A stretch of DNA of 6,032 nt from Escherichia phage ECO95 1-6-1. Under the pieces are notes generated by a model. The model was not told where the DNA came from, did no database searches, and saw only the letters and a list, made by a program, of their open reading frames with translations. Position numbers and translations under genes: made by a program. The stretch lies in sequence record OR845271.1. One strand, given 5' to 3'. Positions 346 to 389 of this stretch are shown one piece after another; the stretch's first letter is position 1; each line of letters opens with the position of its first letter.

Positions 346-365
346 TACTGTGTTTTTATACAGTA
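346..365 (-). promoter_or_regulatory. LexA (SOS) box, TACTGTGTTTTTATACAGTA
   Basis: A perfect CTG-N10-CAG core. It matches the E. coli consensus TACTGTATATATATACAGTA at 17 of 20 positions. It overlaps the -10 hexamer of the promoter at 362-389. Confidence 0.8.
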
Positions 366-389
366 TAAATTAAAGCAAATGTTGGTCAA
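362..389 (-). promoter_or_regulatory. Sigma70-type promoter for the 64..342 gene
   Basis: On the minus strand: -35 TTGACC (389-384), a 16-nt spacer, and -10 TATACT (367-362). The predicted start lies about 25 nt upstream of the ATG at 330. Confidence 0.7.

Follow-up and report, generated by a model that had tools for sequence, protein, structure and literature searches.

A predicted LexA-repressed moron in the distal part of the leftward early operon of a P22-like prophage

Analysis of the 6,032-nucleotide stretch of DNA considered here (Escherichia phage ECO95 1-6-1, OR845271.1; hereafter, the window), part of a P22-like Salmonella prophage with its leftward early operon on the minus strand, points to a short transcription unit that, regulation and architecture taken together, is very probably a LexA-repressed moron at the far end of this operon. 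Judged from sequence comparisons, the protein family encoded by the unit is an uncharacterised addition to the known class of LexA-controlled prophage genes. Prophage genes under direct LexA control can answer DNA damage independently of the phage's own switch, and the known examples, Tum, GfoA/GftA, AntC and the DinI copies, decide if and when prophages are induced. The elements of the unit and its border are the following.

1..63, minus strand: first part of the 3' untranslated region, with the terminator lying beyond the window
64..330, minus strand: coding sequence of 88 aa with its stop codon at 64-66 (open reading frame list, family start, phrog_2100)
336..340, minus strand: Shine-Dalgarno-like GGTGG, 5 nt before ATG 330 (read from the sequence)
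346..365, minus strand: LexA (SOS) box TACTGTATAAAAACACAGTA (consensus match, shuffles, heterology index, footprint)
353..355, minus strand: predicted transcription start, within the box (placed from the -10 position with the usual spacing of 6-8 nt)
362..367, minus strand: -10 hexamer TATACT, whose last four bases are the first four of the LexA box
384..389, minus strand: -35 hexamer TTGACC (promoter scan and upstream alignment)
390..406, minus strand: short spacer after the upstream gene's stop at 407-409, forming the left edge of the mobile module

The LexA box and its promoter

The sequence TACTGTGTTTTTATACAGTA at 346-365 possesses a perfect CTG-N10-CAG core and agrees with the LexA consensus at 17 of 20 positions, with three mismatches to TACTGTATATATATACAGTA. 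It is the only site of the window within three mismatches of the consensus, and none of 200 dinucleotide-preserving shuffles yields any, which bears out the near-consensus LexA box proposed in an earlier note on this DNA. Bare CTG-N10-CAG cores occur twice in the window against 1.08 expected, so that the core alone is uninformative. The site also has the gammaproteobacterial SOS-box form, namely, a CTGT-N8-ACAG palindrome with both arms perfect (compare TACTG(TA)5CAGTA), and its position over four bases of the -10 and the predicted start site agrees with that of SOS boxes, which overlap the -35, the -10 or the start site.

The heterology index (HI), a calculation that the earlier note had proposed, was obtained with a reconstructed matrix based on 28 E. 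coli SOS boxes, and all HI values given here are approximate. In gene orientation, the box TACTGTATAAAAACACAGTA reaches about 2.07 on this matrix, the third best value among the 28 sites, between umuDC and recN and ahead of sulA and recA, and the second-best site of the window stands at 13.3. The P22-like loci L017-L059 otherwise share about 97% identity; their boxes differ at positions 8, 9, 14 and 20 alone, and the approximate HI ranges from 1.2 to 3.7, as if the strength of repression were tuned.

With regard to the promoter, a minus-strand scan returned TTGACC, a 16-nt spacer and TATACT (389..362, 10 of 12 matches) as the top promoter-like site of positions 1-1400. The box, read from 365 to 346 in gene orientation, takes in the last four bases of the -10 and the expected start at about 353-355. 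The scan thus agrees with the proposed repressing geometry, in which the box overlaps the -10 of a good promoter with a small open reading frame downstream.

The earlier note had also suggested that homologues be searched for and the presence of the box beside them checked, and the answer is strongly positive, the box accompanying homologues in unrelated phage backbones. Related loci were collected from genome and viral collections (94 in all), and a strong box was defined as one with an HI below 6 located at most 120 nt upstream of the start codon. Such a box is present in 78 of the 94, mostly 34-38 nt upstream of the start codon, against a background of nine sites with an HI below 6 in 660 kb of flanking phage DNA. 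Seven further loci have a weaker or mis-scored CTG-N10-CAG box in the corresponding place, and eight that lack a box nearby show one farther off, 220-604 nt upstream, with a best-strand HI of 0-6.2; the last locus, L015, shows a partial match only. The approximately nine loci that appeared boxless were considered as counter-examples, but in eight of them the LexA box heads a longer operon, L015 being the ninth.

A footprint of 23 upstream regions with pairwise identities below 80% was built without using the T of CTGT and the A of ACAG for anchoring, and both bases are nevertheless found in 23 of 23 sequences. The TA at the edges is kept in 18-22 of the 23 on the left and 15-22 on the right, and the flanks carry little information. 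In an upstream alignment of 12 sequences, comprising the window and 11 loci from P22-like copies, two Salmonella phage-plasmid-size contigs and SSU5-like phage-plasmids, the TTGAC of the -35 is invariant, and most Serratia sequences have TTGACT or TTGATT at this position.

It might be argued that the palindrome arose by chance, bare CTG-N10-CAG cores being expected about once per window, or that it is the operator of a phage-encoded regulator other than LexA. Both are very improbable, given that a 17-of-20 match is absent from all shuffles, that the LexA-specific positions are kept across phages sharing no regulators, and that the p95 promoter of phage 186, annotated as LexA-repressed, has an equal geometry, its -10 and LexA site beginning at the same base, as in the window. 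Control by LexA is the only reasonable reading and, although still a prediction, is strongly supported computationally, because the LexA consensus positions are conserved and the box co-occurs with the gene.

Two loci harbour an additional box. In L095, a second strong LexA box lies 1.4 kb upstream (922-941 and 2320-2339), and in L049 an identical second copy lies 204 nt upstream (3762 and 3966). Phages like these may contain further LexA-controlled units.

The gene and the module that carries it

The start codon is likely ATG 330, giving a protein of 88 aa. This start is common to the whole family, with an M-G-G-K start in 36 aligned homologues, and a purine-rich GG(T/A)GG-type element is present at the equivalent place in related loci. 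The open reading frame had been given as 88-92 aa; the shorter form stands, whereas the 92-aa form from the in-frame ATG 342 is without a ribosome-binding site.

Nor does the gene deserve the name of orphan under which it was first described. The protein matches phrog_2100 in PHROGs (E = 3e-38), an unnamed family of unknown function, and a profile search of 1.8 billion representative proteins returned 108 clusters at 50% identity, all of small stand-alone proteins and none with a domain fusion. The alignment of 36 homologues contains 19 invariant columns, the core VFFQR-x-KEYGGGYWLG among them, and by these sequence features it is a conserved, real gene under clear purifying selection. Every annotation seen for family members is hypothetical protein, and a literature search found no description of this gene or of its LexA box, the epsilon-34 genome paper making no mention of LexA.

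No Pfam, NCBIfam or PADLOC model matches the 88-aa protein, in which neither a membrane segment nor a nuclease motif was found. It is acidic and soluble (the family median pI is 4.8), and its AF2 model (pLDDT 79.7) contains four strands and a helix at 58-79, followed by a low-confidence tail. Searches for fold, profile or sequence relatives giving a functional handle found none.

The position of the gene at the distal end of the PL operon, as first proposed, agrees with the minus-strand genes identified in the window, which are listed here from N leftwards.

5594-5956, minus strand: N antiterminator (PF25694)
4251-4910, minus strand: DUF7666 protein, between N and the Rad52-type recombinase
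2904-3611, minus strand: Rad52-type recombinase
2280-2573, minus strand: Abc2 anti-RecBCD protein
between Abc2 and the next gene, minus strand: DUF4014 gene
407-1120, minus strand: eaA/DUF551-like gene, stop at 407-409, upstream neighbour of the 88-aa gene

Other genes of the window deserve a brief mention. The DUF7666 protein (4251-4910, minus strand) contains an internal tandem peptide repeat, TGDWSAATNTGNRSAATNTGNRSAATNTGDWSAA. On the plus strand, opposite to the early-left operon, a 167-aa open reading frame with two CxxC pairs (5090-5593, zinc-ribbon-like) adjoins N and weakly matches the PADLOC Cas10 model (E = 7e-4); in lambdoid prophages, the position beside N is often the site of exclusion genes expressed in the lysogen. 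In the ea region, a 58-aa open reading frame (1394-1570, minus strand) encodes a double zinc finger of the CxxCxGxG type, CTACNGSG...CSSCNGTG, like the cysteine-rich part of DnaJ.

The first 1200 bases of the window are 100% identical to Salmonella phage S.Kent 1-2-1, and the leftmost 420 recur at 96-97% identity in many Lederbergvirus genomes, followed there by xis and int on the same strand; no P22 record was among the matches in the phage-collection searches. Homology among P22-like copies begins about 20 nt upstream of the -35. Beyond position 406 or so, related P22-like copies have a different neighbour gene, and homology resumes at TATTTCACCCTTCAAAATTGACC. The GC content is 0.35-0.39 across positions 1-400 and 0.49-0.52 next door. 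In the 100% identical copy OR850878.1 (L099), a terminator-like hairpin CCTCGCACTCGCGGGG with a T-run is located about 178 nt past the stop codon on the same strand, and similar hairpins are present in related phages, L001 included. The unit thus combines the features of a moron, namely, its own promoter, a terminator (seen outside the window, in L099 and L001), a deviant GC content, and neighbours that differ both upstream and downstream between P22-like copies.

The presence of xis and int downstream on the same strand in related P22-like phages raised the question of whether the LexA promoter mainly serves these excision and integration genes during the SOS response, the small open reading frame being incidental. 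We consider this highly improbable and have discarded it, since terminator-like hairpins stand between the gene and the next open reading frame, and the box still accompanies the gene in phage-plasmids and P2-like phages, in which neither xis nor int follows; moreover, the protein is under clear purifying selection.

The unit shares with described phage morons (PMC2629481, PMC3594210) its own promoter and terminator, a low GC content, presence or absence between relatives, and differing neighbours. However, most morons described so far are constitutively active in the prophage, whereas the unit of the window would, by prediction, remain silent up to LexA cleavage.

Distribution of the family and comparison with known SOS operons

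The family is hosted by four kinds of elements, namely, P22-like Salmonella phages, SSU5-like phage-plasmids, Serratia and Rahnella prophages, and P2-like Peduoviridae. Across phages with unrelated immunity and replication systems, protein identity ranges from 50% to 100%. In PLSDB, 446 plasmids carry a member, mostly non-mobilizable SSU5-like phage-plasmids of 105-115 kb from Klebsiella, Enterobacter, Salmonella and E. coli, with SSU5 itself and Klebsiella phage-plasmids included.

In SSU5-like phage-plasmids, a terminator hairpin precedes the promoter. The promoter there probably drives a longer operon, since no terminator is found within 400 nt after the gene; this operon would include DUF1380/phrog_10258, DUF5983 and phrog_12525 genes. 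As the head of such an operon, the gene might conceivably have an operon-specific role.

An 88-aa protein with 100% identity is encoded on the Salmonella plasmid NZ_CP146848.1 (92.7 kb), on the viral contig L020 (92.9 kb) and in P22-like prophages, which suggests a recent exchange of the module between replicons of phage-plasmid size and P22-like prophages. In addition, a 16-nt near-palindrome, AAACAAnTTGTTTTCA, absent from the window, precedes the module's -35 by about 45 nt and is found again 2-3.6 kb downstream in the same orientation, beside iteron-like repeats (acccacctc). Its copies lie at 3899-3914 and 7511-7526 in L003, at 3897 and 6377 in L061, at 5257-5272 and 2458-2473 in SSU5 (L097), and at 3897-3912 in many P22-like copies. 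It could be a boundary of the module or the binding site of a phage-plasmid factor.

In P2-like phages, the family member belongs to an operon. Locus L090, the one examined among the eight loci with a more distant box, has, in that order, a LexA box, orf68 (phrog_698), DinI (PF06183, E = 2e-24), the family member and a terminator, and the whole block is flanked by replication gene A/dam on one side and by the portal gene on the other. This gene order is repeated, LexA boxes included, in Escherichia phage Cartapus and Klebsiella phage ST13-OXA48phi12.1. In the latter (L101, 3591-5577), a pair of genes for an AAA_21 ATPase and RloB lies downstream of the DinI/family-member pair; these two genes represent a defence-like cargo within the variable region that precedes the portal gene in P2-like phages.

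The annotated SOS operon of phage 186 (p95, tum, orf97) occupies the corresponding genome position. Like the window unit, it has a sigma-70 promoter in the prophage; expression from it is independent of the phage repressor, as is predicted for the window, and in the P2-like relatives the family member belongs to this very operon, after a small open reading frame and DinI. The window copy differs from the 186 operon in being a stand-alone gene located distally in the leftward early operon of a P22-like phage, and its protein is unrelated to Tum, DinI or Orf97. In Fels-2 and PSP3, tum is reported to be divided in two, with the antirepressor gene upstream and a dinI homologue downstream (Lemire et al., PMC3121763), and the P2-like pair of small open reading frame and DinI looks like this split arrangement, although no BLAST similarity was found between orf68 and Tum.

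The Gifsy operons dinI-gfoA/gftA-irsA (PMC3121763) resemble the window unit in being bounded by terminators, controlled by LexA, composed of genes for small proteins and carried by lambdoid Salmonella prophages. Their dinI and irsA genes have no known role in induction (PMC3121763), and their GftA and IrsA proteins share neither sequence nor profile similarity with the family.

These comparisons invite the reading of the protein as a LexA-controlled antirepressor of the Tum, GfoA or AntC type, a precedent raised at the outset, which might possibly act in trans on the repressors of co-resident prophages or SSU5-like phage-plasmids. Small antirepressors under LexA control are the best-known class of prophage SOS genes; the Gifsy proteins GfoA and GftA have about half the size of the 146-aa Tum, and Fels-1 keeps a functional antirepressor gene despite its cleavable repressor (PMC3121763). 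Likewise, the P2-like members are placed in an SOS operon where 186 has tum, and a review of SSU5-like elements describes no LexA-controlled induction factor for them. Nevertheless, we regard this reading as unlikely. The precedent does not extend to homology with Tum, GftA, IrsA, Orf97 or DinI: hhalign gave a probability of 0.4% against GftA and 0.1% against a DinI alignment, with no PF06183 match, direct comparison with IrsA and with Orf97 of 186 detected no similarity, and tblastn of the family found no match in the Gifsy or 186 genomes. Moreover, the protein occurs with the unrelated immunity systems of P22-like, P2-like and SSU5-like elements and Serratia prophages, and the P2-like operons already have an antirepressor candidate in the separate small open reading frame that stands ahead of DinI, as in the split pair of PSP3 and Fels-2.

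The protein could also be a toxin triggered by the SOS response, an inhibitor of growth or division, or an exclusion factor protecting the induced lysogen or the prophage against competitors. According to its annotation, Orf97, encoded by the gene that follows tum in 186, blocks 186 infection when expressed, but the family protein has no similarity to it and matches no PADLOC defence model. The P2-like members border the variable region before the portal gene, which contains the AAA_21 and RloB genes in ST13-OXA48phi12.1; on the other hand, no antitoxin-like partner is conserved beside the gene across its contexts. Similarly, the low HI would indicate tight LexA control, as is usual for SOS genes with harmful products, sulA and umuDC for example, whereas the soluble, acidic nature of the protein and the lack of a membrane segment or nuclease motif speak against it. 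On balance, we find this reading unlikely as well.

Possible targets of the protein and significance

With regard to its function, we consider it quite possible, if short of probable, that the target of the protein is a conserved component of the host's machinery for DNA damage or replication and not a phage repressor. Three features favour a host target, namely, the occurrence of a 50-100% identical protein in phages with unrelated immunity and replication systems, the antirepressor candidate already held by the P2-like operons, and, as guilt by association only, the operon shared with DinI in P2-like phages. DinI is a small LexA-regulated protein with an acidic C-terminal helix that binds RecA filaments. 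Like the family protein, it is acidic, of about 80-90 aa, LexA-regulated and common in prophages, and the two are co-transcribed in P2-like phages, but the predicted order of secondary-structure elements differs.

The C-terminal tail, acidic and of low pLDDT in the AF2 model, offers no more than a lead. Acidic residues are followed by a C-terminal [QNDE]-Phi-x-L-x in 85 of 107 members, and 36 of the 107 end in [QND]-Phi-x-L-[FLIMV] or Q-x-x-L-P-F; 31 members have endings like NLSLF, NFSLF, QLPLF or DFELF, and five distant ones end in Q-x-E-L-P-F, as in QFELPF. The window protein ends in DDIDNFKLQ, and its polar last residue is shared by members that, with it, amount to 49 of 107; several members have one or two additional residues past the motif. 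The motif resembles beta-clamp-binding peptides, for which QLSLF is the consensus (PMC5397184).

Mimicry of the SSB tail was considered too and downgraded, since the ELPF ending is restricted to a distant subgroup, the window protein ends differently, and extra residues follow the motif in several members. The C-terminal tip of SSB is DDD[IL]PF-COOH, an acidic run with a free carboxylate at its end, and QL[SD]LF and QLxLxL are further forms of the beta-clamp-binding motif, which mostly lies at a terminus within a disordered stretch. We can tentatively propose that this SOS-induced effector docks via its disordered acidic C-terminal peptide on a hub of the host replisome and thereby reprograms replication, translesion synthesis or repair in the damaged lysogen, a proposal that we hold to be rather unlikely as it stands. 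[quoted passage not shown]

In the main reading, events would unfold as follows. In the undamaged lysogen, a LexA dimer bound to TACTGTATAAAAACACAGTA would block RNA polymerase by lying over the start site and part of the -10. Following DNA damage, activated RecA would promote LexA self-cleavage, and the promoter would fire whether the phage repressor is intact or not. The low HI predicts tight LexA binding and hence a gene that is late among the SOS genes to be derepressed. LexA self-cleaves faster than lambda-type repressors, so derepression would probably still come before prophage induction, and it is plausible that expression precedes CI inactivation. The 88-aa acidic protein would then be translated from ATG 330, on a transcript ending at the intrinsic terminator about 180 nt downstream. 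It would consist of a beta-sheet/helix body and a disordered acidic tail, whose conserved Phi-x-L might, with low confidence, dock on a host replication or repair protein. Such docking would adjust the damaged cell to the advantage of the prophage, as is thought for the phage DinI copies.

The family appears as tightly tied to LexA as Tum, GfoA/GftA, AntC and the DinI copies, and it is common in clinically relevant hosts. The gene is a small, well-defined and easily testable candidate, and identifying its putative conserved host target during the SOS response could reveal a new manipulation of DNA-damage tolerance, mutagenesis or induction by mobile elements. If docking on the replisome were true, the protein would represent a phage counterpart of the clamp-binding SOS proteins across P22-like, P2-like and SSU5-like elements.
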